The notes under the pieces: generated by a model
Database searches by the model: none
What the model saw: the letters and a program-made list of their open reading frames with translations, nothing else
Told to the model about the DNA's origin: nothing
Source: an uncultured Candidatus Saccharibacteria bacterium
Lineage (GTDB): Bacteria; Patescibacteriota; Kazan-3B-28
Reading direction: 5' to 3'
Assembly (NCBI GenBank): GCA_964461775.1
Contig: CAYWVE010000029.1
Coordinates: 1-24,054, forward strand
Length of the DNA: 24,054 bases
Made by a program: the position numbers and the translations under genes
Shown: positions 1 to 23,250 of the stretch, piece by piece
Layout: every line of letters begins with the position of its first letter
How positions within the stretch are numbered: the first letter of the stretch is position 1

Positions 1-526
1 GCGCTTGCTCAGGGCTGGTAATATCCGGCTCGGTCACAATCTCGGCCAACGGCGTCCCGCACCGATTCAAATCCACCAAGCTTCCATTAGCAGTGTGCAT
101 CAGCTTACCGGCATCTTCTTCTAGGTGTAGTCGCGTGATCCCCACTACAAATTCTCGCTTGCTCTTGTCTGTCTGATCCAAATAATCTACCATCACTCGA
201 CCGTGCTCACCCATAGGGAAGAAAAACTGCGACACCTGATACCCTTTAGGCAAATCCGGATAAAAATAATTTTTCCGATCAAAGCGTTGAAATTCATTTA
301 TTGCGCACCCCAGCACCGTCGCCAATCGCGCCCCAAACTCCACCGCCGTTGCATTCATTGCCGGCAGTGTGCCGGGGTAGCCCATACAGATCGGGCAAAC
401 ATTACTGTTTGGTGACGCATCGGAATCATTTTTGCATCGACAAAACATTTTGGTCGCTGTGGCCAACTGGACATGGATCTCCAACCCAATCACCGGTTCG
501 TATTGTGCCAATAATTCTTTATCCAT
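1..526 (-). CDS. gatB: Aspartyl/glutamyl-tRNA amidotransferase subunit B, N-terminal part (runs off the window start)
   Basis: My translation from ATG at 526 gives [29 protein letters not shown]...[14 protein letters not shown]...[19 protein letters not shown]...[13 protein letters not shown]...[17 protein letters not shown], which are hallmark GatB motifs. Not in the ORF track because it is truncated. Confidence 0.97.
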
Positions 527-528
527 AA

Positions 529-936
529 TTATCCTGCCAGTTTACCAATCGCCCTACCCAAACTCTCTACCGCCCTGCGGATCTGACCAGCATTCGGCCG
601 GGCATCCACCTCATGTGCCAGCCGATTGCGCAGTTTGTGAGCTTGCCATACTTCTTGTTCCAAGCTCCCCAGCCAACCACGGCCGTTTTTCAACCGGTCA
701 CCCATAGTCTGCCCGGCTACCCCCCGCCATTTCAATACTTGATCCAGCAATTTGTCTGCTTCCATCACTGCCCTTACCTGTGCATGCTCATCTGCACTAT
801 TTAACATAATCTTAATCTCGCCCCACCGCTTACCAATCTCACTGCGCTGGCTCTCAGCCAAACCCCCTCGTCGCCGACTCATCAGCCACCACGCCGCTAC
901 TGCTACTAGCAAAACTACAATCAATCCGTAAATCAT
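529..936 (-). CDS. Membrane-anchored hypothetical protein with HEPN-like RxxxxH motif (135 aa)
   Basis: N-terminal hydrophobic helix ([15 protein letters not shown]) followed by RRR. Contains [10 protein letters not shown] and [11 protein letters not shown] (R103-H108). The start ATG overlaps the gatA stop (ATGA) and the stop lies 2 nt before the gatB ATG, so the ORF is real and operonic. The HEPN assignment is inference. Confidence 0.8.
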
Positions 937-2402
937 TGCATGCCTCCCAACTTAGCATTTAGTTCCTGCCGCCAATCTGCTGTGGCCGTGGCTTCTTCAA
1001 ACGCTCGCGCCACCCGCAATACCACCTCTTCTTCAAATGGTCGGCCAATAATCTGCAGCCCCACCGGCATCCCACCAACCATCCCGCACGGGATCGAAAT
1101 TGCTGGCAACCCCGCCATACTCGCTGGAGTCGTCAGCAGATCCGCCTTGTACATCTCCAGCGGGTCGCTCACTCGCGCCCCCAGCTCAAAAGCAACCGTC
1201 GGGGTGGTCAGGCTGACGATCACATCTACTTTTTCAAATGCTTTATCAAAATCTTGTTTTATCAGAGCTCGCACCTTTTGCGCTTTGTCATAATACGCAT
1301 CGCGAAAACCAGCCGACAAAGTATATGTCCCTAGCATAATTCTGCGCTTCACCTCCGAGCCAAACCCTTCAGCCCGAGTTTTTTTATACACATCAGCCAA
1401 GCTATCAGTGTCTGGATCGGTAGCTTTAGAAAATCCATAACGGATCCCATCGTACCGTGCCAAGTTAGCCGACACCTCGGCAGGCTGAATAATGTAATAA
1501 GTCGCTAGCGCATATTCTTCATGAGGCAAATCAACCCCTACAACATCAACCCCCCTGTTTCGAAACTCATCCCGCACATTATTCAAAAAGCTGTCCTTCT
1601 CATCCAGCCCACCTGCGGCAATAGTGTCTCTGGAAGACAATATACCTCTCATAAAACCAATTCGGATACCGTCAATGGGCTTTTTGCATTCGGCCACATA
1701 ATCCGGCACCGGTACGCCGACAGTAGTCGAGTCCTTATCATCCTGCCCAGCTATCACCTGCAACACCCTTGCTGCATCCTCTACCGTTCGGGTGATCGGG
1801 CCGATCCGATCCAACGAGCTAGCCATTGCTAGCAATCCATAGCGGCTTACCCGCCCATAAGTTGGCATCATCCCCACTACACCGCAAAAAGCCGCTGGTT
1901 GGCGGATCGATCCGCCCGTATCACTCCCCAAAGCAAAAGGCACCAAGCCGGCCGCCACGGCTGCGGCTGCACCGCCCGAGCTCCCACCCGGCACCCGCTT
2001 GGGGTCCAGAGGGTTCAGCGTTGGTCCATATACAGAATTTTCGGTACTTGAGCCCATCGCAAACTCGTCCATATTAGTCTTGCCTATCATCACCGCTCCC
2101 GCCTCACGCAGCTTACGAATCACAGTCGCCTCATACGGGGATACAAATCCTTTTAGCATCTTAGAGCCAGCCGTAGTTGGTAATTCTAGCGTAGCCATAT
2201 TGTCTTTGGCCAGATACGGCACCGCCAACTCAGATTTGCCACTGGCAATCGTACCCAACATCTCTCGGGTAGCTACGCCGTCCGGCACCACCGCATTGAG
2301 CACTTTTTTTTCCTCGATCAAACTCAGCGATCTATCTATCGCCTGCTCCAAGCCTAATTTTGCCCACACATCGATTGTACTCATCAGTCCGTAATCACCC
2401 AC
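933..2402 (-). CDS. gatA: Glutamyl-tRNA(Gln) amidotransferase subunit A
   Basis: Amidase signature GKTNMDEFAMGSSTENS, PGGSSGGAAA, GSDTGGSIRQPAAFCG, plus SANLARYDGIRYG and EVKRRIMLGTY. The true start may be GTG 2402 or ATG 2384. Confidence 0.97.
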   Translation of the reverse strand: MGDYGLMSTIDVWAKLGLEQAIDRSLSLIEEKKVLNAVVPDGVATREMLGTIASGKSELAVPYLAKDNMATLELPTTAGSKMLKGFVSPYEATVIRKLREAGAVMIGKTNMDEFAMGSSTENSVYGPTLNPLDPKRVPGGSSGGAAAAVAAGLVPFALGSDTGGSIRQPAAFCGVVGMMPTYGRVSRYGLLAMASSLDRIGPITRTVEDAARVLQVIAGQDDKDSTTVGVPVPDYVAECKKPIDGIRIGFMRGILSSRDTIAAGGLDEKDSFLNNVRDEFRNRGVDVVGVDLPHEEYALATYYIIQPAEVSANLARYDGIRYGFSKATDPDTDSLADVYKKTRAEGFGSEVKRRIMLGTYTLSAGFRDAYYDKAQKVRALIKQDFDKAFEKVDVIVSLTTPTVAFELGARVSDPLEMYKADLLTTPASMAGLPAISIPCGMVGGMPVGLQIIGRPFEEEVVLRVARAFEEATATADWRQELNAKLGGMQ

Positions 2403-2409
2403 TAGCTGC

Positions 2410-2706
2410 TTATGCCTTATCTATAATCTTTTTTACCTTGATAAATTCACCCTCCCGTTGAGGGGCTCGTATCAAAAACGCTTCCCGCTCTATCACTGAT
2501 TCAGCTATCTCGTCCGCCTGCATTACATTAGCCAAGCCCGTAATCTGCCCCATCTCCCCCGTATTTGCAGTATCGATCTGCCCCAACTGGTCGATGTACC
2601 CCACTACTGTCGATAAACTATCGACCAGGCTCGCCCGCTCTTCGCTCGAAAGCTCAATTTGAGCTAGCTCCGCCAGCTTGATCAGATCGGCATCGGATAA
2701 TTTCAT
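2410..2706 (-). CDS. gatC: Aspartyl/glutamyl-tRNA amidotransferase subunit C
   Basis: 98 aa directly upstream of gatA, with the GatC pattern (KLAELAQIEL...YIDQLGQIDT...D...APQREGEFIKVKKI). Confidence 0.93.
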   Translation of the reverse strand: MKLSDADLIKLAELAQIELSSEERASLVDSLSTVVGYIDQLGQIDTANTGEMGQITGLANVMQADEIAESVIEREAFLIRAPQREGEFIKVKKIIDKA

Positions 2707-2714
2707 ATATGGGT

Positions 2715-2720
2715 ATTATA
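2715..2720 (-). promoter_or_regulatory. -10 element (TATAAT) 8 nt upstream of gatC ATG; probable leaderless start
   Basis: Minus strand reads TATAAT-ACCCATAT-ATG, with no SD sequence. Confidence 0.65.
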
Positions 2721-2794
2721 CAGCCAACCGCATTGACAACAAAGCCCCATTTTGCAATCCTATAGCTACCTTTTGTACATTATGGAGGCTGATT

Positions 2795-3037
2795 ATGGCT
2801 CGCGGATCACATCGCCACGGCAGGTCACCAAGTTCTAAGAAAAAGAGCCCTGACTACACCCCTCTCTCTGACGACAAGCGCCAGCGCTACGCCAAATATA
2901 TCGAAAACAGCCGGAGGCGACCCACCCGTTCGGCAAGAGTGGACACCTCAGAGACCGACTCCAGACCTCTCATCATCCTATGCTTCATCCTGGCTGGTAT
3001 CGCCTTGTGCACCTTCTATGTCGTTACCCGGATCTAG
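2795..3037 (+). CDS. Small basic tail-anchored hypothetical protein (80 aa)
   Basis: GGAGG at 2784-2788, 6 nt before ATG 2795. R/K/S-rich N-terminus and C-terminal hydrophobic helix (LIILCFILAGIALCTFYVV). A terminator follows. The ORF-track start at 2678 overlaps gatC and is unlikely. Confidence 0.75.
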   Translation: MARGSHRHGRSPSSKKKSPDYTPLSDDKRQRYAKYIENSRRRPTRSARVDTSETDSRPLIILCFILAGIALCTFYVVTRI

Positions 3038-3050
3038 CCCGCCTCTCCCT

Positions 3051-3072
3051 GCCGGAATTATCCGGCTTTTTT
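3051..3072 (+). terminator. Rho-independent terminator
   Basis: GCCGGA-ATTA-TCCGGC followed by TTTTTT. Confidence 0.85.
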
Positions 3073-3114: not shown

Positions 3115-3158
3115 GGAAGCAGATTTTTCTGTAGTTTAACAACCCAACGGAGGCCTAT

Positions 3159-4670
3159 ATGCATCTCATCATTACCGTCTGCCTGGGCGTACTCGCCTAT
3201 GCAGCTATCGGGTACCTCCTGCTTGTGGCCTACATGTGGCGCTACAAGCGAACAGGGATCCTCGGCATCCAGCCCAGAAGCGTCATCTGGCGCATCCTGG
3301 ACTATCACTTCAATCTCGGGCTGTGTCGCTGGATGACACATAACACCAGGTGGGAAAGGAGGATAGCCGCGGACCCCAAGTATGGCAGCCTTTGCTACAC
3401 CTCGCTCGCCATCTGGTGGTTTACCCACCTCATCCCCCTCGTCACACTTGCATCCATCATCATTTACCTGTTTTTCTTCATCTTTATGCTATGTTGCGCA
3501 ATTGGAAATGCATTCGAGTACATGACCATTAAGGTACTCGGCAATCGGGCCAATCCAATCAACCAGTGGTGGTATCACCTGGGCTTGTGGATCAAGACCT
3601 CTTCAGCCGTCCACGCCCTGCGCACCCATACTGATCGCACAGCACAGGGATGCATCGCGGTACTGAAGTACCTCTGGCAGTGGCGACAGTTTATCCTGGT
3701 GGGCATCGTCCTCGCCTTAGCACTGGTAAACATTCTCTACGCTCACCTCAGCCCTGGTACCAGCTTTGGAATAGCAGCATTTGTTCTATTCCTCCTTGCT
3801 GGCCCAGCCAAGTTCATCTGCGCCGTAGCGTTCACCAACAAAGTAACTCTCGAACGCCGTCACCTGACAAACTTCATCGTCAGCGCTGGGGTTGTCTGCT
3901 TTGGGTGGGTCTTGAGCCAGCTCGGTCAACCTACCACACCCATCGACATCCAGGTACTCAACCCGACCATCCAAGGGCTTAGCTTTCTGGCTATCTCATT
4001 GATTTGGCTGAGCCTAGCGGACAAAACCTTTGGCGCTATTGGCCAATGGCACTACCACAACTACTATCTGATTCGCAGCCACACTCGCGATCACCCATTG
4101 CTCGGCGAAGATCTCCCAACCGATGCCCTGCGTCAAGCCTGGTATCAGCAGGAAGGCAACCCCAACGGCAAAAAGTTCACCAAGAACCAGAGAAAACAGA
4201 GGCTGGATACGCATCCACCCCTGACGCTCACAGACTTCTCGCTGGCTTGGTATCGATTCCGTTTGCAGCTCTGTGCCTCACTCCTCTTTACCGTAGTCAT
4301 GCTCATCCAGGTTCAGACACTCGGCTGGACTATTCTCTGGGTTATGGTCATCACCATCACTACCCTTGGCTTGTGGGTGGAGATGCATACCAGATGGTAC
4401 CAGCTCAACGATCCAGCCTCTCGGGACAATCTGATCGAGCGCTTCAAGCAAGAAGCTCTGAAAGATCTTGAAAAGGAGCTGCGTCCGTCCGCTGTCACGC
4501 CTCACCGCTGGCCAAGCGCGCAACCCAAAACTCCACGCCCCTACAAGCGCAATCGGCTCTATGAACTTCTCGATGGCATTGGATCCTGGGCCACCGATAC
4601 TCTAGACGGAGTCTGCCCCAAGGTAACCGTCACGATCATCCGACCCGACCCACCCGCGCCCAGCACCTAA
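3159..4670 (+). CDS. Polytopic membrane protein of unknown function (503 aa)
   Basis: Long ORF with its own promoter, SD and terminator. Roughly 8-10 hydrophobic segments. No family that I recognise. Confidence 0.85.
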   Translation: MHLIITVCLGVLAYAAIGYLLLVAYMWRYKRTGILGIQPRSVIWRILDYHFNLGLCRWMTHNTRWERRIAADPKYGSLCYTSLAIWWFTHLIPLVTLASIIIYLFFFIFMLCCAIGNAFEYMTIKVLGNRANPINQWWYHLGLWIKTSSAVHALRTHTDRTAQGCIAVLKYLWQWRQFILVGIVLALALVNILYAHLSPGTSFGIAAFVLFLLAGPAKFICAVAFTNKVTLERRHLTNFIVSAGVVCFGWVLSQLGQPTTPIDIQVLNPTIQGLSFLAISLIWLSLADKTFGAIGQWHYHNYYLIRSHTRDHPLLGEDLPTDALRQAWYQQEGNPNGKKFTKNQRKQRLDTHPPLTLTDFSLAWYRFRLQLCASLLFTVVMLIQVQTLGWTILWVMVITITTLGLWVEMHTRWYQLNDPASRDNLIERFKQEALKDLEKELRPSAVTPHRWPSAQPKTPRPYKRNRLYELLDGIGSWATDTLDGVCPKVTVTIIRPDPPAPST

Positions 4671-14321: not shown

Positions 14322-16142
14322 CTACAGATCCTTGATCTGCCCAGCTACCTTCTCCCCTACCACCTCGGCCAAGGCAGGCAGGCTTGCCTCCTTGACCGCT
14401 CGCATCGATCCAAAAGCCTTGATTAGCTTCTTGCGCGTCGCTGGACCCACTCCGGCAATTTTTTCCAGCTCTGATTCGCGTACCTTCTTGCGGGCTAGAT
14501 GTGTATGCAAACCCAAAGCAAACCGATGTGCCTCATCCCGGATCGTTTGCAACAGATACTTGGCTGGGGCATTGTTGGGCAATACGATCACTCCTCCATT
14601 GCCTGGCAAGACAATGTCATCTTTGGCTTTTGGCGCGCTATGATCACCTTTGGCTATCCCGATAATTGGTATCCCAATCGGCCCCAACGCCTGCACCACC
14701 GCATTTACCTGCCCCTTGCCCCCATCGATCACTATCAGGTCAGGACGCCGCGCAAACCCACTATCACTATCCAGCTTGGCAAACCGTCGCTGCAACACCT
14801 CCGCCAACGAGGCGAAGTCATCGGGACCAACCACACTCCGGATTTTAAATCGCCGGTACTGCTCCTTGTTCATCTTGCCCCCTTCAAATACCACCATCGA
14901 TCCCACCGAGTCTGTCCCTTGAGTATTCGAAATATCATAGGCCTCGATCCGATCCAACTTATTTAGCTTCAATAACTTCTCCAGATCCTTCACCCCTTGT
15001 TCATGTCCGCGCTTTTCCAAATTTAAATTCATCGCCAAACTCATCAACCGCAACCGAGCATTCTGATTGGCGATCGTCACCAAATCCCGCCTAGCACCCC
15101 TACTTGGATTTACTAGCTCTACCTGTCGCCCAGCTCGCTGAGCCAACCATTGCTCTAGCACCCCTTCATCGGCAATCTCTACCGGCAACAAAATCACCGG
15201 CGGGATCTCCTCGGTCTGCAGATAAAAATCCCGCATAAAAGCCGAGATCACTTCAGCATCGGTCATCTCGTACTGGCTATCCAGAGCAAATGTCTGACTA
15301 TTGAGCAGCTTTCCTTTCCGGACTCGCAAATACGCCACTACCGCCTTGTTGAGCTGTCGCTCAACCCCCAATACATCCGCCTGCAACCGCAAATTAGTCG
15401 AGACCACCGACTGCCGCTGCCCGATCTTTTCAATCGCCTCCAAGCTATCACGCAGCTTGGCAGCTCGTTCAAATCGCTTTTCGCCAGCCGCTTGCTGCAT
15501 CGCTTTTTTCAGATCTCGCGCTATTGCATCGTATTGTCCGCCAATAAATCGGATCACCTCCTGCATCACCGCTCGATATTCTTCGACCGACACTTTGCCA
15601 ATACACACCCCGCCGCAAATCCCCAAATGATAATTCAAGCACGCTCTCCCCACCCCCTTAGCCAATTTATCGTTACTAATTGCCTGCGGACTCGAACAAA
15701 TCGGGAAAATCTTTTTGATCAGCTTCAGCAAATCATATACCGGTCGACTCTCGATATATGGTCCAAAATACCGCGCCCCATCATTGGCCACCCGTCGAGC
15801 CAGTAAAATTCGCGGAAACTCTTCTTGCATCGTAATCCGGATATACAAATAGCTTTTATCATCCCGCATCAACACATTGAAGGGCGGCCGATGCTTCTTG
15901 ATAAACTCATTTTCCAAAATCAACGCCTCTACCTCACTCCGCACTGCCACCGTCTCTACTGCCGCGATCTTGGCTACTAGCACCTGCGTCTTGATCGACT
16001 GACCAGCAGGCTTAGCCCAATACGAAGTGACTCTTTTGCGCAAGTTCTTAGCTTTACCCACATACAAAATATCCCCGGCCTTATCCTTCATCAGGTATAT
16101 TCCCGGATCGATCGGAATCTCTTTGAAATTCGGCTTATACAT
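14322..16142 (-). CDS. uvrC: Excinuclease ABC subunit C (606 aa)
   Basis: GIY-YIG domain (PGIYLMKD...LYVGKAKNLRKRV), UVR domain, RNaseH-like domain (IEAYDISN, PDLIVIDGGKGQ) and HhH. I place the start at ATG 16142, because homology begins there and a terminator and extended -10 lie just upstream. The track's 58-aa extension to 16316 is rejected. Confidence 0.96.
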   Translation of the reverse strand: MYKPNFKEIPIDPGIYLMKDKAGDILYVGKAKNLRKRVTSYWAKPAGQSIKTQVLVAKIAAVETVAVRSEVEALILENEFIKKHRPPFNVLMRDDKSYLYIRITMQEEFPRILLARRVANDGARYFGPYIESRPVYDLLKLIKKIFPICSSPQAISNDKLAKGVGRACLNYHLGICGGVCIGKVSVEEYRAVMQEVIRFIGGQYDAIARDLKKAMQQAAGEKRFERAAKLRDSLEAIEKIGQRQSVVSTNLRLQADVLGVERQLNKAVVAYLRVRKGKLLNSQTFALDSQYEMTDAEVISAFMRDFYLQTEEIPPVILLPVEIADEGVLEQWLAQRAGRQVELVNPSRGARRDLVTIANQNARLRLMSLAMNLNLEKRGHEQGVKDLEKLLKLNKLDRIEAYDISNTQGTDSVGSMVVFEGGKMNKEQYRRFKIRSVVGPDDFASLAEVLQRRFAKLDSDSGFARRPDLIVIDGGKGQVNAVVQALGPIGIPIIGIAKGDHSAPKAKDDIVLPGNGGVIVLPNNAPAKYLLQTIRDEAHRFALGLHTHLARKKVRESELEKIAGVGPATRKKLIKAFGSMRAVKEASLPALAEVVGEKVAGQIKDL

Positions 16143-16150
16143 ACACACCC

Positions 16151-16159
16151 ATTCTACCA
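16151..16159 (-). promoter_or_regulatory. Extended -10 (TGGTAGAAT) 8 nt upstream of uvrC ATG; probable leaderless start
   Basis: Minus strand reads TG-G-TAGAAT-GGGTGTGT-ATG. Confidence 0.72.
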
Positions 16160-16161
16160 AT

Positions 16162-16186
16162 AAAAAAGGGAGGGCAGCGCCCTCCC
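16162..16186 (-). terminator. Rho-independent terminator ending the uvrA-uvrC intergenic unit
   Basis: GGGAGGGC-GCT-GCCCTCCC followed by TTTTTT. Confidence 0.88.
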
Positions 16187-16537
16187 CATCAACCTGACTC
16201 TCTGCGATAAACGCGTTGTAATCCGGAGGCACCAGTCCTCCCTTGATCTTCTTGGCTGGTAGCTGGATCTTCCAGTAAACTGGCAGCTTGTTTTGCCGAC
16301 CGGGATCGAGAACCACCAGGCGCTAGGCACTAAGTGCCACCGGGGTCTCAAATCAACCATAGTCATCCCACAAGCCAGCTCCTTCCGACCAGTTTGCCCA
16401 GATGCCGAAGATAGATCACAACAAGAGGAGACGACCATCACCGTCCACTTCGAGCTTATAGCTCATACTCAACGCTTACACCGAGAGGTATGAAGGTGCT
16501 CCTCCGACAAGAGTTGATTCTCTCGCCGGATTTACAA
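16162..16537 (-). ncRNA. Candidate ~375-nt structured non-coding RNA of unknown class
   Basis: Has its own promoter and terminator, and no convincing ORF. Nested helices include an 11-bp 5'/3' closing stem (16537-16526 with 16226-16216). G-U pairs favour the minus strand. No tmRNA, RNase P, SRP or intron signature recognised. Confidence 0.62.
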
Positions 16538-16542
16538 GACTC

Positions 16543-16571
16543 AATTTAGCAGACCTCTCCCACCAGCGCAA
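16543..16571 (-). promoter_or_regulatory. Sigma70 promoter for the intergenic unit
   Basis: TTGCGC (16571-16566), 17 nt spacer, TG-C-TAAATT (16551-16543). The predicted start (~16537-16535) coincides with the first base of the closing stem. Confidence 0.68.
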
Positions 16572-16577
16572 GCCCAA

Positions 16578-19409
16578 CTACCGCTTGAGCAGATCTACCA
16601 GATACTTACCGGTGTAGGAACCCTTCACCTTGGCAACCATCTCCGGGGTGCCCTCTGCAATGATCCGACCCCCCAAATCTCCCCCTTCTGGGCCCATGTC
16701 GATCAGCCAGTCAGCCGTTTTGATCACATCCAGACTATGCTCGATCACGACCATCGAGTTGCCTTTTTCGACCAACCGATGCAATACATGCAACAGCTTA
16801 TTTACATCCTCAAAGTGCAATCCTGTGGTTGGCTCATCCAATACATACAAAGTTCGGCCGGTTGCTCTCCGCGACAGCTCACTGGCTAGCTTGATCCGCT
16901 GCGCTTCACCTCCAGACAACTGCGTCGCTGGTTGACCCAGTTTTACATAGCCCAACCCCACTTCCAGCAAAGTTTCTAGCTTTGTCTTGATCGAAGGAAT
17001 ATGTTGGAAAAATTCGATACTATCCTCTACGGTCAGATCCAGCACATCTGCAATGTTTTTGCCTTTGTAGTAAATCGACAAAGTCTCCAGGTTGTACCGG
17101 CGCCCCTTACACACATCACACGGCACATAAACATCGGGCAAGAAGTGCATTTCAATCTTGATTACACCATCACCACGGCAATTCTCGCACCGACCACCTT
17201 TGACATTGAACGAAAAGCGTCCTTGCTTAAAACCGCGTGCTTTTGCCTCGGGCAGAGCCGCAAACATATCGCGAATAAAAGTAAACAACCCAGTATAAGT
17301 AGCCGGATTACTCCGCGGACTCCGACCGATCGGGGACTGGTCGATGTTGATGATCTTATCTATATGCTCAATCCCTTTGATCTCTTTATGCTTGCCCGGC
17401 AAATCATGTGCGCCATGCAATATCCGCGATAGCGATTTGGCCATAATGTCATTGATCAGGATCGATTTGCCCGATCCAGATAATCCGGTGATACAAACAA
17501 AAGTCTGCAACGGAATCTTAGCCGTAACTTTCTGCAGATTAAACTCCTCGGCCTCTACAATCTCCAACCATTTGTCATTTGGCTCTCTGCGCTTCTTGGG
17601 CACCTCGATCTTTCGCTTGCCCGACAGGTACTGGCCGGTTAGCGACCGGGGATTCTTCGCCACCTGAGCTGGCGTACCCTCCGCTACGATTTCTCCACCA
17701 TGCTTACCTGCCAATGGGCCCACATCGATCACCCAATCCGATGTCGTGATCGTCTCCTCGTCGTGCTCCACCACCAATACGGTATTGCCCAGGTCCCGAA
17801 GATTAGACAAAGTTTTGATCAAGCGCTGGTTGTCATGCTGGTGCAAGCCAATCGATGGTTCGTCCAATATATAAATTACGCCAGACAAGCCGGAGCCAAT
17901 TTGAGTCGCCAACCGAATCCGCTGCGCCTCTCCACCAGACAAAGTATTGGCCGAGCGATCTAGGGTCAGGTACTCCAATCCCACATTGCGCAAGAAGCCC
18001 AATCGTTCGTTGATTTCTTTTAAGATTTGTTTCGCAATCAGCTGCTGCTGATCCACCAGCTTGAGCCCTGCAAAAAAACCCACCGATAGTCGCACCGGCA
18101 TCTGTGCCGCTTCAATGATAGATTTGTCCCCCACCGTTACCGCCAATACTTCCGGCTTCAATCGCTTACCTGCACACTCGGGGCAAACCTTGGCAGTCAT
18201 AAATTGTTCTATCTCCGCGCGGATAAAGTCCGAGTCTGTCTCGCGGTAGCGCCGCATCAGGTTTGGAATCACTCCTTCGAACTGCACATCATATTCGTTG
18301 GTCTTGCCCGCGGGAGTCCGGTATTTGACCGTCACCTCATCCTTACCCGTACCATGCAAGACAATCCCCAGCGCCTTCTCCGAAAGTTTAGCTACTGGAA
18401 TATTCAAATCGATCTTGTATTGCTTAGCCACCGCCTCCAGTATTCGGCTCGACCATCCACCTCCAGCCGTCATGTGATTTCCCCATGGTCGCACCGCGCC
18501 TTCGAGCAAGCTCAAGTTTTTGTTCGGAATCAACAAATCCGGATCCAGCTCCATCGTGATCCCCAACCCTGTGCATCGAGGACAAGCACCGTGTGGACTG
18601 TTGAAGGAAAAGTGTCGTGGCTCCAACTCAGGGATGCTAATGTCGCACTTAGGACAAGACAAACTCTCGGAAAAAAACCAATCTTTGGTACCATCACTCA
18701 CCTTTAGCTTGCCATTGGCCAGCCGCAAAGCTGTTTCTACCGAATCCGACAACCGCGTGCGGTCGTCTTGGCTAGCATTAGCCAGATTCAACCGGTCCAC
18801 TACAATCTCGATACTGTGCTTTTTGTTCTTATCTAGCTCTGGCAGCTCATCCATCTCGTACAGGCTACCGTCGATCCGCACCCGAACAAATCCTGACTTT
18901 TTGGCCTCGGCCAACTCTGCCTTAAATTCGCCCTTACGGTCTACAATTACCGGGGCCAAGATTAGCCCCTGTTCAAATTTCAAATTAGTAATCTGCGACA
19001 AGATCTGGTCGATGCTCTGACGCACAACTGCGGCTCCACAGCTAGGACAATGTGGTATTCCTACCCGTGCATACAACAGTCGCAAGTAATCGTATATTTC
19101 GGTAATCGTCCCCACCGTCGAACGCGGGTTGGAGGACGAGGATTTCTGATCGATCGAAATCGCTGGCGAAAGCCCTTCGATACTATCCAAATCTGGCTTA
19201 TTGGTCAGACCCAAAAACTGCCGCGCATACGCCGACAACGACTCTACATACCTCCGGTGCCCTTCGGCGTAGATCGTATCAAACGCCAACGAGCTCTTAC
19301 CCGAACCCGATAAACCGGTAATGGTAACCAGTTTATTTTTGGGTATCCGGACATTAACATTCTTCAAATTATGTTCGCGCGCTCCCCGAACTTCAATAAA
19401 ATCGTTCAT
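16578..19409 (-). CDS. uvrA: Excinuclease ABC subunit A
   Basis: Two ABC ATPase modules (GLSGSGKSS and GLSGSGKSI; LSGGEAQRI twice; LDEP twice), zinc fingers, and N-terminal VRGAREHNLKNV. Confidence 0.98.
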   Translation of the reverse strand: MNDFIEVRGAREHNLKNVNVRIPKNKLVTITGLSGSGKSSLAFDTIYAEGHRRYVESLSAYARQFLGLTNKPDLDSIEGLSPAISIDQKSSSSNPRSTVGTITEIYDYLRLLYARVGIPHCPSCGAAVVRQSIDQILSQITNLKFEQGLILAPVIVDRKGEFKAELAEAKKSGFVRVRIDGSLYEMDELPELDKNKKHSIEIVVDRLNLANASQDDRTRLSDSVETALRLANGKLKVSDGTKDWFFSESLSCPKCDISIPELEPRHFSFNSPHGACPRCTGLGITMELDPDLLIPNKNLSLLEGAVRPWGNHMTAGGGWSSRILEAVAKQYKIDLNIPVAKLSEKALGIVLHGTGKDEVTVKYRTPAGKTNEYDVQFEGVIPNLMRRYRETDSDFIRAEIEQFMTAKVCPECAGKRLKPEVLAVTVGDKSIIEAAQMPVRLSVGFFAGLKLVDQQQLIAKQILKEINERLGFLRNVGLEYLTLDRSANTLSGGEAQRIRLATQIGSGLSGVIYILDEPSIGLHQHDNQRLIKTLSNLRDLGNTVLVVEHDEETITTSDWVIDVGPLAGKHGGEIVAEGTPAQVAKNPRSLTGQYLSGKRKIEVPKKRREPNDKWLEIVEAEEFNLQKVTAKIPLQTFVCITGLSGSGKSILINDIMAKSLSRILHGAHDLPGKHKEIKGIEHIDKIINIDQSPIGRSPRSNPATYTGLFTFIRDMFAALPEAKARGFKQGRFSFNVKGGRCENCRGDGVIKIEMHFLPDVYVPCDVCKGRRYNLETLSIYYKGKNIADVLDLTVEDSIEFFQHIPSIKTKLETLLEVGLGYVKLGQPATQLSGGEAQRIKLASELSRRATGRTLYVLDEPTTGLHFEDVNKLLHVLHRLVEKGNSMVVIEHSLDVIKTADWLIDMGPEGGDLGGRIIAEGTPEMVAKVKGSYTGKYLVDLLKR

Positions 19410-20032: not shown

Positions 20033-20572
20033 CTAGTTGATAATCCCGGTATCCAAGCCCCCTGTAAAGACAGGTGGAAGAAGCCGAGGAAGGTCGGGAG
20101 GAGGCTTCATCTCGCTCAGAGCCTTCTCCACCTCCGCTTCAAGGTCGGAATTGCCAGTCTCATCACTCGTCTCCTGCGCTTCCGCCACCACCGCTGCCAC
20201 CTGCTCCGCAATCCTTCGTCGACTCGATGGAACCGCTTGCCCTTTGGCGTTGTCCATCCAGTCAGCGAATGCGATGTTGGCCAACCAGTCCTGAACGGTG
20301 GGGATGAACAGCCCGCCATAATCTTCCAGTACATGCTGCTGACCGATCTCTGTCACCGAAATCTCCGTACCATCGGAGTTGGTGATGGAATCACCAAAGA
20401 TCTGCGGCAATATCGTGGTGATAAACCACGAATTGTGCGTCAGTGCCCGATGCCTGGTGTCACCCATCGCAGCCTGACTCGAATCGATCAAGCTATGAAT
20501 AGGCAGATAATCCTGAATGGAACCACCATGTCTGGCAACACTATTCTGAGAATGAAAAACTGGGTTACCCAT
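20033..20572 (-). CDS. DUF6915-like protein (His/Asp-rich, putative metal-binding) with acidic/Pro-rich C-terminal extension (179 aa)
   Basis: MGNPVFHS...HGGSIQDYLPIH..ID.S....D.RHRALTH...QHVLEDYG..FIPTVQDWL matches my recollection of DUF6915. SD AAGGGAG lies 7 nt before ATG 20572 but only 1 nt before ATG 20578. Confidence 0.75.
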   Translation of the reverse strand: MGNPVFHSQNSVARHGGSIQDYLPIHSLIDSSQAAMGDTRHRALTHNSWFITTILPQIFGDSITNSDGTEISVTEIGQQHVLEDYGGLFIPTVQDWLANIAFADWMDNAKGQAVPSSRRRIAEQVAAVVAEAQETSDETGNSDLEAEVEKALSEMKPPPDLPRLLPPVFTGGLDTGIIN

Positions 20573-20611
20573 GGGCATTCTCCCTTAGATGATCAAAGTA
20601 CAACTAGCCAC

Positions 20612-20640
20612 AGACTACAAGATCTCTACCGGGATAGCAA
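20612..20640 (-). promoter_or_regulatory. Sigma70 promoter for the DUF6915-like gene
   Basis: TTGCTA (20640-20635), 17 nt spacer, TAGTCT (20617-20612). The -35 is enclosed by an inverted repeat (20617-20626 and 20651-20660). Confidence 0.6.
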
Positions 20641-20702
20641 TACATCATCAGAAATCTTGTGCCCGTACCTTCTCCCCGTCGAGCCAATTGTGTCCGGCAA
20701 TG

Positions 20703-20971
20703 CTAAAAGTCCTGTCTGGCGTGGCCACTGCTTGAACCCGACCACCTTCCTGTTCCTGGAGGGGGTGCAGTGGACTTGTCCTGACTTTTAGTCAGGATTG
20801 GCTTTGCCAATCCACGGATGAGGGGGAACCGCTGGTTCCCCCTCAAGTTGTTTTTGGCCACTATGAGCCAAGTAAGAGGGTTTAGGATATTGCCTAACAA
20901 TTGGTGAGCGGGGTGGCCCAAGTGTTAGGTATTGGCCACACAATACCTAACTGGCGGGAGCGCTGCGCCAG
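20703..20971. repeat. Array of perfect and interlocking inverted repeats (hairpin array)
   Basis: Perfect stems at 20779-20797 (8 bp), 20795-20813 (8 bp), 20819-20845 (12 bp), 20924-20951 (11 bp), 20951-20971 (6 bp) and 20882-20897 (5 bp). Long-range pairs 20725-20731/20767-20773 and 20703-20711/20783-20791. Confidence 0.9.
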
Positions 20972-20981
20972 AACAACGCAT

Positions 20982-21006
20982 AGAAGAAAAGCGGCCTCTC
21001 GGCCGC
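20982..21006 (-). terminator. Rho-independent terminator of topA
   Basis: GCGGCC-GAGA-GGCCGC followed by TTTTCTTCT. Confidence 0.82.
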
Positions 21007-21013
21007 CTCCCTT

Positions 21014-21042
21014 CACTAGGTCACTAGTTTACTAAAATACTA
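21014..21042. repeat. Four copies of YACTA (minus strand TAGTR) at exact 8-nt period
   Basis: CACTA at 21014, CACTA at 21022, TACTA at 21030 and TACTA at 21038. Confidence 0.75.
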
Positions 21043-21048
21043 TTCCCC

Positions 21049-23250
21049 CTATTCCTTCACCTCGTACCCGCACTTAGTACACACCGGGTATCCTTTTTTG
21101 GCTGGCTTAGTCATAAAGCTACTACAGCTTGGACACTTTTCCTTCACGGGTTCATCCCAGGAGGCAAAATCACACGCCGGATATTTGTTGCAACCCCAAA
21201 ACACCTTGCCTCGCTTGGTTCGCTTCGTCACCAGCTTGCCCTCGGCACATTTTTGGCATGCGATATCCAGCTCTGCTGCTTTATTGGGCTCGATAAACTT
21301 ACATTTAGGATAATTACTGCACCCAAAGAATTCTCCAAACCGCCCGCGCTTTTTGACGATAGGCGAATCACACTCAGGACACTTGCGATCCGTGGTTTGA
21401 TCTTCGATCTTACCGTCGCTCCCCAACTGCCCCGTATACCGACACTCTGGGAAGTTCGAACAAGCCAAAAACTTACCAAACCGACCGGTCTTAATCATCA
21501 GCTTACCTCCGCACAACGGACAAACCTCATCGGTCTCTTCGTCATCCGGCCGCTGCTTTGCTACCTCCTGCTCCTTACTTTCCAAATGTTTAATAAATGG
21601 TCGATAAAAATCCTCGACCACTGGCACCCACTCGGCCTTGCCATCTGCAATGTCATCCAAATTATCTTCCATTTTAGCGGTAAAGTTATAATCAACAATT
21701 TCCGAGAAATGCTCCACCAAAAAATCATTTACCTGCAATCCCAGTGGCTGGGGAAATAGGGTGCGCCGTGTCCGCTCGACATAATTGCGAGTGATCAGAG
21801 TGGTAATAGTAGGAGCATAGGTACTCGGACGCCCGATTCCCATCTGCTCCATCTTTTTTACCAAACCAGCTTCAGTAAAGCGTGCCGGTGGCTCGGTATG
21901 ATGCTGGCTAGGTACTACCTCCAACAAATTCAGCACATCTTCCGGCTGCATCTCGGGCAATTCCGATTCCTGGAACGGCCATTTGGTTAGAATCTTGGCA
22001 AACCCAGCAAAAATTACCTGAGCACCACTAGCTCTACTCAATACCCCATCCGAATCGATTTTGATTTCTTGGGTTGCAATCCGAGCTGGCAACATTTGCG
22101 AAGCCATCAAGCGCTGCCAAATCAACCGATACAACTTGTAATGATCTTCGCTCACCTTACCGCGAATATCTTCCGGATGCAATTCAGGATATGTGGGGCG
22201 AATCGCTTCGTGGGCTTCCTGCGCACCGCGACTTTTGGTTCTATAAAAAATTGGTGCATCGGGCAGATACTCCGCTCCTACATTTTTCTGGATCCAGCCC
22301 CGCGCAGCTGCCACCGCCGAGCCCGCCAGATTAGTAGAGTCGGTTCTCATGTAAGTAATCAACCCCTTGGGTCCTGTACCATCCACCGCCAATCCTTCGT
22401 AGAGCTGCTGAGCCACCATCATGGTCTTTTTGACACTAAAGCCCATCTGAGTACTGGCCGCCTGTTGCAAGGTAGATGTTGTAAATGGGGGAGACGGCCG
22501 TCGCGTCTTTTCCTCCCGAGTCACTTCTACTACTCGATGATCCTTAGCTGCCTCAATCCGCCCCACCAACCCTTCGGCAGTGGCCTGATCGGCAATTTTA
22601 TCCAAACTATTCCATTCCGGCATTACCTCGGCGTGCAGTTCACCGCCACTCTGAGTGCTCAGCTTCACATCGATCCGCCAATACTCCTCTGGCACAAACG
22701 CCAACACCTCTCGCTCCCGCTCGGCCAATAAGCGCAATGCTACAGATTGCACCCGACCAGCCGACAAACCACGCATAATCTTTTTCCACAAAAAAGGGCT
22801 CAGCTTGTACCCCACCAACCGGTCCAACACTCGCCTGGTCTGCTGGGCATCTACCAAATTCATATCCAGCTGGCGCGGGGTTTCAAAAGCCTTAGCAATC
22901 GCCTCTTCGGTAATCTCATGAAAAGCCACCCGATGCAGCTTGGCTGGATCGGGTTTGATCACGCTCACAATATGCCAACCAATCGCCTCGCCTTCGCGAT
23001 CCTCATCAGTTGCTATGTATAGTTGATCACTCTTGGCCGCCAGCTCCTTGAGCTTGGTCACCTGCTTGCGGCTTTTGGTTGGGATCACATACTGAGGCTC
23101 AAATTTATTGTCTACATCTACCCCTAGCTTAGACTTGGGCAGATCTCGTACATGCCCATAAGAGGCTTCTACTACAAAATCTCGACCGAGGATCTTCCCG
23201 ATCGTCCTGGCCTTGGCAGGGGACTCAACAATAACTAAGTTTTTAGCCAT
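21049..23250 (-). CDS. topA: DNA topoisomerase I (type IA) with C-terminal zinc ribbons
   Basis: IVESPAKA, ATDEDREGE (TOPRIM), SAGRVQS, LITYMRTDS (catalytic Tyr), QEAHEAIRPT, GIGRPSTYA, and C-terminal Cys4 repeats. Confidence 0.98.
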   Translation of the reverse strand: MAKNLVIVESPAKARTIGKILGRDFVVEASYGHVRDLPKSKLGVDVDNKFEPQYVIPTKSRKQVTKLKELAAKSDQLYIATDEDREGEAIGWHIVSVIKPDPAKLHRVAFHEITEEAIAKAFETPRQLDMNLVDAQQTRRVLDRLVGYKLSPFLWKKIMRGLSAGRVQSVALRLLAEREREVLAFVPEEYWRIDVKLSTQSGGELHAEVMPEWNSLDKIADQATAEGLVGRIEAAKDHRVVEVTREEKTRRPSPPFTTSTLQQAASTQMGFSVKKTMMVAQQLYEGLAVDGTGPKGLITYMRTDSTNLAGSAVAAARGWIQKNVGAEYLPDAPIFYRTKSRGAQEAHEAIRPTYPELHPEDIRGKVSEDHYKLYRLIWQRLMASQMLPARIATQEIKIDSDGVLSRASGAQVIFAGFAKILTKWPFQESELPEMQPEDVLNLLEVVPSQHHTEPPARFTEAGLVKKMEQMGIGRPSTYAPTITTLITRNYVERTRRTLFPQPLGLQVNDFLVEHFSEIVDYNFTAKMEDNLDDIADGKAEWVPVVEDFYRPFIKHLESKEQEVAKQRPDDEETDEVCPLCGGKLMIKTGRFGKFLACSNFPECRYTGQLGSDGKIEDQTTDRKCPECDSPIVKKRGRFGEFFGCSNYPKCKFIEPNKAAELDIACQKCAEGKLVTKRTKRGKVFWGCNKYPACDFASWDEPVKEKCPSCSSFMTKPAKKGYPVCTKCGYEVKE

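Follow-up and report, generated by a model that had tools for sequence, protein, structure and literature searches.

A candidate structured RNA gene between uvrA and uvrC in a Kazan-like Patescibacterium, and the non-coding units that occupy the same gap in its relatives

What lies between the excision-repair genes uvrA and uvrC of an uncultured Candidatus Saccharibacteria bacterium (Patescibacteriota, Kazan-3B-28 in the GTDB lineage), and is a functional RNA made from it? The stretch of DNA analysed here, hereafter the window, comprises the 24,054 nucleotides (nt) from position 1 to 24,054 of contig CAYWVE010000029.1 (assembly GCA_964461775.1). In it the two genes are separated by a gap of 435 bases (~0.4 kb), within which a first-pass annotation, made from the letters of the window, had proposed a stand-alone, highly structured transcript of ~375 nt, predicted to span ~16537-16162 (all window positions are given on the minus strand). 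We favour, with a probability of about one half, the reading that 16537-16162 is a functional, stand-alone, lineage-specific and fast-evolving structured RNA gene, placed in a conserved RNA-gene island upstream of a leaderless uvrC.

The same locus was examined in the uvrC neighbourhoods of nine relatives, all of them Kazan-like Patescibacteria, which represent eight lineages with UvrC proteins 55-77% identical to that of the window. In all eight lineages uvrA is followed by a gap of 0.6-1.6 kb without a credible gene (the lone doubtful gene call, of 69 amino acids (aa), is found in L104) and then by uvrC. The gaps measure 593 nt in L005, 938 nt in L006, 1011 nt in L088, 1102 nt in L091 and L096, 1178 nt in L102, about 1180 nt in L093 and L095, 1488 nt in L104 and about 1590 nt in L087, with one to three non-coding units of 190-650 nt in each. 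Sense-strand sigma-70 promoters with 10 of the 12 consensus positions were called by the promoter scan in L005, L087 and L093, and promoters were read by hand in L006, L088, L091, L102 and L104; those of L005, L087, L093, L006, L091, L088 and L102 sit at the uvrA stop or at most about 130 nt after it. Each unit of the relatives ends in a terminator-like hairpin, scan-called in L005, L087, L093 and L102 and hand-read elsewhere.

As a class these units are far more structured than tiles of the window. We computed folding z-scores, without terminators, for a set of 14 units that includes the window's own, and compared them with a background of 60 same-strand tiles of 346 nt covering the whole window (z = -0.55 +/- 1.39). 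The sense z-scores of the units range from -0.8 to -5.2 and are about -3.1, against -0.55 for the tiles; 12 of the 14 are at or below -2.4, a value reached by five of the 60 tiles, and the sense score is lower than the antisense score in 11 of the 14. A family of first units, unit A of L087 (2764-3182), L093 (2946-3340) and L095 (1-320), is 67% identical over ~530 nt, with long invariant blocks, whereas in the neighbouring uvrC the 4-fold degenerate sites have reached saturation between L087 and L093 (37% identity). The consensus fold of this family has 93 pairs with 11 compensatory double changes, compared with 0-3 in controls in which the 3' partners were slid by 1-3 columns, and between the B units of L093 and L095, where ~10% of the positions differ, 174 of 174 predicted pairs are kept with five G-U-type and three compensatory changes, this covariation being read from two- or three-sequence alignments with consensus folds derived from those same sequences. 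We can say with reasonable confidence that the units of the relatives, as a class, are real structured RNAs, and within shallow lineages they keep both sequence and base pairing.

The unit of the window has a comparable layout. Upstream, uvrA (943 aa, 16578-19409 in the open reading frame (ORF) list) ends with a TAG stop at 16580-16578 and is followed by a candidate promoter at 16543-16571, composed of TTGCGC at 16571-16566, a 17-nt spacer and an extended -10 element TGcTAAATT at 16551-16543, with a predicted transcription start near 16537-16535. At the other end stands an intrinsic terminator, GGGGAGGGC-GCU-GCCCUCCCU followed by U6, with its stem at 16187-16167 and the U-run reaching 16162; the terminator scan gives it nine pairs, seven of them G-C, and it ends the unit together with any read-through from uvrA. 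Directly after it comes the uvrC promoter TGGTAGAAT (16159-16151), with the ATG of uvrC 8 nt further 3' at 16142, so that the promoter and start together occupy 16142-16159. These elements are all as the first-pass annotation had read them, including the promoter letters, the strength of the terminator and the extended -10 of uvrC. Its two broader statements on transcription fared less evenly: the elements of a promoter exist and the consensus scan leaves them uncalled, and the notion of a self-contained transcription unit is borne out by the terminator, by the separate uvrC promoter and by the bounded units of the relatives, while the window promoter is weak and uvrA has no terminator of its own.

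The fold can be described from the 5' end. A hairpin of the form CCGGCGAGAG-AAUCAA-CUCUUGUCGG at 16503-16530 appears in both the minimum free energy (MFE) and the centroid structures, and it competes with P1, the outermost helix of the fold drawn in the first-pass annotation. It is followed by a core irregular rod (16241-16422) formed by UGAUCUAUCUU/AAGAAGAUCA, AGCUG/CAGCU, GCUUG/CAAGC and a long hairpin at 16364-16298, capped by GGCAC-UUA-GUGCC at 16338-16326. The mean pairing probabilities along the rod are 0.41 (UGAUCU), 0.57 (AGCUG) and 0.78 (GCUUG), and the long hairpin, -23.6 kcal/mol on its own, is present in the MFE structure as well as in the constrained fold. Further 3' there is a small hairpin, AAGGGAGGACUGGUGCCUCC (16225-16244, listed as inverted repeat I1, 20 nt, 75% complementary), which can either fold on itself or pair through its 5' half with the 3' arm of the terminator (16166-16185), a geometry resembling that of an antiterminator. 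All the helix arms listed in the first-pass annotation are complementary as described there, P1 having 11 bp with one bulge, and its rod-and-branch model holds in the inner rod, which in the modelled thermodynamic ensemble is the sole part of it that is favoured. The three outer helices are not, with mean pairing probabilities of 0.008 (P1), 0.004 (GCACC/GGUGC) and 0.09 (UCCUC/GAGGA), and the full fold of that model (-135.5 kcal/mol) is 10.7 kcal/mol worse than the MFE of -146.2 kcal/mol calculated for 16540-16162.

With the terminator included, this span has a z-score of -2.79 in sense and -2.51 in antisense orientation; without it the values are -2.41 (-2.2 to -2.4 across runs) and -1.64. 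The folding energy is lower than that of shuffled sequences, with z-scores of -2.2 to -2.8, and the stronger sense folding would fit the proposed minus-strand polarity, for which it is weak evidence. Taken alone, the window sequence provides modest evidence for a structured RNA gene; that from its context in the relatives is stronger.

The downstream border of the locus is shared. In the window and in eight relatives (L005, at 3975-4003, L006, L091, L087, L093, L088, L102 and L104), nine lineages in all, the order is the same, namely the T-run of the upstream terminator, a TGnTA(G/C/A)AAT element, 6-8 nt and the ATG of uvrC, and a Shine-Dalgarno sequence is absent before uvrC in the nine. Since the last terminator is directly followed by a -10 element with the start codon only 6-8 nt later, the uvrC mRNA appears to be leaderless and to be produced from its own promoter, which would make uvrC independent of the upstream transcript. 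Gene callers place the N-terminus of UvrC too far upstream: against a length of ~606 aa they give 636 aa for the window protein and 679 and 616-620 aa for relatives, and the 636-aa version begins within the non-coding unit.

The interval itself is non-coding. Its longest ORF (95 aa, 16441-16154) extends across the terminator into the promoter of uvrC and gave no match to Pfam; its composition, with much Arg, Ser, Cys and Trp, looks like junk, and the presence of TAA or TAG stops in all six frames means that recoding of TGA would open none of them, in agreement with the earlier statement that no convincing ORF is present. Comparison of the gaps with tblastx detected no coding similarity, and the ORFs in the units of the relatives are equally junk-like, none of them resembling a protein. 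Known RNA families are likewise missing: Rfam 15 had no hit at the gathering score anywhere in the window, nor at E<=10 across 16050-16700, ARAGORN found neither transfer RNA (tRNA) nor transfer-messenger RNA (tmRNA) in the window, and an Rfam search of the gaps of six relatives at E<=1 to 5 returned tRNAs and sub-threshold noise only, without a family for any unit. The suggestion of an undescribed class has thus stood up to a check against the described families, even at E<=10, and so has the observation that the signatures of RNase P RNA and tmRNA are lacking.

Several candidates were considered by name. Bacterial RNase P RNA (types A and B) gave no covariance-model match at E<=10, and its P4 strands, GAGGAAAGUCC ... 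ACAGAA..GGCUUA, are absent from the sequence. tmRNA, looked for as a tRNA-like domain formed from the 5' and 3' ends and a tag-peptide frame, was not found by ARAGORN in the window or by Rfam. Rfam gave no match to 6S RNA, whose rod measures ~185 nt and has a bubble at its centre, as opposed to a multibranched unit of 375 nt, and GOLLD, ROOL, OLE, HEARO and raiA had no covariance-model match in the window at E<=10 or in the gaps of relatives at E<=1 to 5. As for a phage origin, blastn of phage genomes gave no match and three exact-pattern scans of viral contigs produced nothing or chance hits. We found in the literature no description of large non-coding RNAs at this locus in Patescibacteria or Kazan.

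Is the window unit, then, the same RNA as those of the relatives? By sequence comparison it is not detectably related to any of them. Between gaps, blastn and tblastx align only the uvrC promoter and the T-run with the window, and the similarity detected by blastn, Smith-Waterman, k-mers and nhmmer is limited to the unit-A family of L087, L093 and L095, to L093 with L095, to L091 with L096, and to the tRNA and promoter parts of L006 and L091. Against 60 shuffles the Smith-Waterman z-score is at most 1.9 in every pair involving the window (0.7-1.2 with the unit-A family), and no 8-mers or 9-mers are common to the lineages beyond chance, the terminator T-run aside; neither GGAGUCUGU, present in three B-type units, nor CCAGCCU..ACCUAUUU, present in the B units of L006, L091 and L088, is above chance. 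An nhmmer profile of the L087A family recovered in the window the terminator only (E = 0.56), apart from a TTGTTGTGAT match at E = 7.4, and R1, a covariance model built on the 3' domain shared by its members, hits its own family only and nothing in the window unit. The comparison of uvrA-uvrC gaps suggested in the first-pass annotation therefore has a double outcome, with units at the same place in the relatives but none to which that of the window can be aligned.

Structure was also compared without any sequence term, by means of a home-made Sankoff-type aligner that uses McCaskill pairing probabilities, scores matched pairs only and takes reversed sequences as controls. The positive control, L087A with L093A, scored 0.81 versus ~0.46 for its reversed controls. 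The window unit and L005A, phylogenetically the closest pair, obtained a normalised score of 0.61, the third of 91 pairs, which 3.3% of 182 reversed controls reach, whereas the window unit scored below the reversed control with L087A or L093A, and over all pairs of lineages the real mean (0.445) equals that of the controls (0.446). Homology between the window unit and L005A is at most hinted at by this modelling. The loss of similarity between lineages extends even to L006 and L091, with UvrC proteins 93% identical and 46% identity at 4-fold sites. Here the parts in common are an identical promoter, tRNAs that are 86% identical and a 74%-identical stretch of ~140 nt that covers the unit's 3' end as well as the beginning of uvrC, with the hairpin just upstream kept through compensatory changes.

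The reading of the window unit as an RNA gene has to be weighed against several observations that count against it, and they are in good part those expected if the interval were a drifting 3' untranslated region (3'UTR) of uvrA or a spacer, in which only the terminator, shielding the leaderless uvrC promoter from read-through, and perhaps the bulk spacing would be selected, the promoter and helices being chance. There is no terminator between the uvrA stop and the unit; the candidate promoter has 7 of the 12 consensus positions, is not called by the scan and is the weakest of the set; and because five of the 60 tiles reach -2.4, the unit sits in the tail of the background and is no outlier by folding energy. 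L005A, the unit of the closest relative, has a z-score of -0.81, no better than shuffles, and the columns that it aligns with the window unit by structure are 29% identical, as in random sequences. The unit is unalignable even to that of a relative at 77% UvrC identity, and in general an alignable homologue was not found in the relatives reached through UvrC and UvrA, no inexact metagenome search with the RNA itself having been made. The bodies of the units of L006 and L091 (390-560 nt) cannot be aligned and differ in length, and sharing nothing between lineages is also what neutral spacer DNA would do. Even the conservation within L091 and L096, whose gaps are 99-100% identical except for one 100-nt bin at 94% while uvrC is ~94% identical in its DNA and 75% at 4-fold sites, may reflect a recombination tract, given that identity is as high (98-100%) at the adjoining end of uvrA. 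On the other hand, Patescibacteria have very small and gene-dense genomes, in which the upkeep of a non-coding island of 0.4-1.6 kb with consensus promoters carries a cost and probably serves some purpose, yet eight lineages keep 0.6-1.6 kb and the window 0.4 kb; a terminator alone requires ~40 nt, not 375; and neither the excess of structure of the units over window tiles nor the conservation of the relatives' units above the synonymous rate, with compensatory pairs, is expected of a spacer. We regard this explanation as doubtful, although it is the most serious of the alternatives.

A related possibility is that the interval is what decay has left of an island of tRNA genes or mobile-element DNA prone to turnover, and that it has lost its function in this lineage. 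The tRNA content of the gaps does differ by lineage, sub-threshold or odd tRNA-like genes included, and that of the window is the smallest gap, with no tRNA and a single unit; but no tRNA-like remnant is detectable at E<=10, repeats, insertion scars and matches to phages or viral contigs are all absent, and the flanking core genes keep a conserved order, which makes decay unlikely. The alternative pairing of 16244-16225, with itself or with the 3' arm of the terminator, recalls an antiterminator and anti-antiterminator and could suggest a cis-acting leader or attenuator of uvrC. This we consider very unlikely, given the conserved -10 element 6-8 nt from the ATG, from which it follows, in the absence of a Shine-Dalgarno sequence, that read-through transcripts would lack a 5'-terminal AUG, together with the lack of a match to riboswitch or leader families and the up to three separately terminated units in the gaps of relatives. 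Still less probable is the very divergent housekeeping RNA (RNase P RNA, tmRNA, 6S or signal recognition particle (SRP) RNA) that had been raised at the outset: its size would suit RNase P RNA or tmRNA and the gaps of relatives do hold tRNA genes, yet Rfam is negative for all four at E<=10 in the window and at E<=1 to 5 in six relatives, ARAGORN finds no tmRNA, and the lineages have no k-mer or motif in common beyond chance, whereas housekeeping RNAs keep universal motifs. Least of all do we believe in a small protein, for which the 95-aa ORF would be the only candidate, in view of the terminator and uvrC promoter that this ORF runs across, its composition, the negative Pfam and tblastx searches and the junk-like ORFs of the relatives.

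If the window unit is indeed an RNA gene, its transcripts would start at the weak extended -10 promoter in front of it or arrive as read-through from uvrA, and would end at 16162. We infer that it is the local representative of the island RNAs, the gap of the Kazan-like clade being an island of tRNA genes and large folded non-coding RNAs of which the window would hold one unit. Elimination of the other roles would leave it an action in trans as a stably folded RNA, for instance as a protein-binding scaffold, a sponge or an RNA-only assembly, and it would not be a cis regulator of uvrC. Its rapid turnover could come from selection on local structure or on lineage-specific partners, or else from replacement of whole units by recombination. 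A more ambitious version, which we put forward tentatively, is that the gap is an island devoted to large structured RNA genes (<=650 nt), between one and three of them and at times mingled with tRNA genes, that are strongly expressed, selected within species and replaced or remodelled past recognition between species, the window unit being one allele of this new class. Such an island, and this analogy is just as tentative, might be a chromosomal, fast-diversifying counterpart of the ornate RNAs of phage tRNA islands.

Among known systems, GOLLD and ROOL are the nearest in kind, being large ornate RNAs of bacteria and phages, multi-branched, stand-alone and of unknown function (Rfam; PMC12286853). 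The resemblance lies in size and complexity, in the tRNA genes that accompany the units in the gaps of relatives, and in the combination of a conserved 3' part with a variable 5' part that L006 and L091, one pair of relatives, display. However, the window unit is smaller (375 nt), has no covariance-model match, is chromosomal and placed between core repair genes rather than in a prophage, and has no tRNA gene next to it; moreover, GOLLD and ROOL are defined by extensive conservation, whereas the island units have no nucleotides conserved across lineages. OLE, a structured non-coding RNA of ~600 nt that forms a ribonucleoprotein, would offer a parallel for the trans-acting role proposed here. 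Its sequence is strongly conserved, it occurs only in Bacillota, and it is associated with oapA, oapB and oapC, while the window has neither a match to OLE nor any of these three genes as neighbours. RNase P RNA and tmRNA resemble the window unit in length (350-400 nt), and both are stable, have a promoter and a terminator of their own and in some cases form clusters with tRNA genes, but the window unit has none of their defining motifs and folds.

Lineage-specific small RNAs (sRNAs), including those derived from 3'UTRs, also combine fast turnover of the body with a kept promoter and terminator, and the position of the window unit directly after a coding gene, with no terminator in between and a terminator common to the upstream mRNA, is that of a 3'UTR-derived sRNA. 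Typical sRNAs are 50-250 nt long and have a short single-stranded seed, in contrast to the 375 nt of the window unit and to the units of relatives, which reach 650 nt with dozens of helices and are stacked several to a gap. The closest parallel within the clade is the unit-A family. Like its members, the window unit is the first transcription unit after the uvrA stop, on the same strand and of about the same size (~400 nt), with a 5' hairpin, a multibranch domain, a terminator of the GGGGAGGGC type and the 11-mer TTGTTGTGATC ~110 nt from the predicted transcription start, although no significant sequence, profile or covariance-model similarity connects them.

The tRNA genes of the gaps vary from one lineage to another, with Tyr and others in L006 and L091, two in L088, and Ala, Pro and an odd one with a four-base anticodon in L087, and with none in L005, L093, L102 and L104 (in the last two according to the Rfam scan). 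The odd gene of L087 (3398-3470), between tRNA-Ala(GGC) and tRNA-Pro(CGG), was called by ARAGORN with the anticodon caga and scores 36.9 bits with the Rfam tRNA model, and the second tRNA of L006 (3201-3262), at 24.7 bits, remains under the Rfam gathering score. After two tRNA genes, L006 (~3300-3420) and L091 (~3140-3250) have a tRNA-like element of ~103 nt, with an acceptor-like stem, a T-arm-like hairpin and a long insert between them, which lies in a shared stretch of 86% identity and is recognised neither by ARAGORN nor by Rfam. In L005 a mini-unit (3891-3980) stands between the 450-nt unit and uvrC, with a promoter of 10 of the 12 consensus positions (TTGACT-16-TACAAT), a transcript of ~55 nt and a terminator-like hairpin with a U-run.

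The relatives' loci were reached by exact-protein look-ups, in which the exact UvrA and UvrC of the window have no record. The best matches to the two proteins were metagenomic proteins and 'Patescibacteria group bacterium', with 'candidate division Kazan' somewhat more distant; the closest UvrC among 5.8 billion proteins is 77% identical, and the UvrA search, in which homologues from Kazan-like Patescibacteria are 72-81% identical, gave no closer relative. A UvrC scan of genome contigs yielded only sequences 34-39% identical, and a metagenome scan with universal UvrC motifs only loci 33-40% identical. In L006 (GCA_041389145.1) uvrA is apparently split into two ORFs, 407-1126 and 1212-3062, with no gene call over 407-3062; a frameshift, a fault of the assembly or a pseudogene could each account for this. 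Another protein, P0122 (JGI, 1548 aa), is UvrA-like at 59% identity and ~1.6 times the normal length, with total bits above those of any single-copy UvrA relative, which suggests a duplicated or fused UvrA.

Within the window, nearly all genes are on the minus strand and the neighbours of the unit are core genes (topA, uvrA, uvrC, pgk and ligA), uvrC itself (606 aa, from the ORF list and a protein search) occupying 14322-16142. Further downstream, the conserved genes comprise among others those of a sigma-70-like protein that carries a HARE-HTH domain and of a DUF8128 ATPase of the VirD4/TraG-like kind. Only one of the 17 long ORFs ends with TGA, the others with TAA or TAG, and no repeats, CRISPR-like arrays, insertion scars or second copy of the unit were found in the window. 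There is a second non-coding gap of 470 nt at 20579-21048, also on the minus strand, with topA (21049-23250) on one side and a DUF6915 gene (20033-20578) on the other. Of all tiles of the window, that at 20801-21146 has the lowest folding z-score (-4.76); several strong hairpins follow the topA terminator, and Rfam returned only sub-threshold noise for the gap, which may be another structured RNA or a long 5' untranslated region.

Bacteria have few structured non-coding RNAs longer than 350 nt, and to our knowledge nearly all such classes (ribosomal RNAs, RNase P RNA, tmRNA, group I and II introns, OLE, GOLLD, ROOL and HEARO) have proved mechanistically remarkable. Even if the units described here were not real RNAs, the locus would still show a leaderless uvrC promoter that is conserved and directly joined to the terminator before it. 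If they are, a test is tractable, the units being short enough for in-vitro transcription, chemical probing and cryo-electron microscopy, and CMfinder and Rfam-style comparative motif searches would miss such RNAs by design. It would also follow that large RNAs can persist in their position and fold despite a complete turnover of sequence, and this major uncultured radiation would have in these units its first specific large non-coding RNAs.

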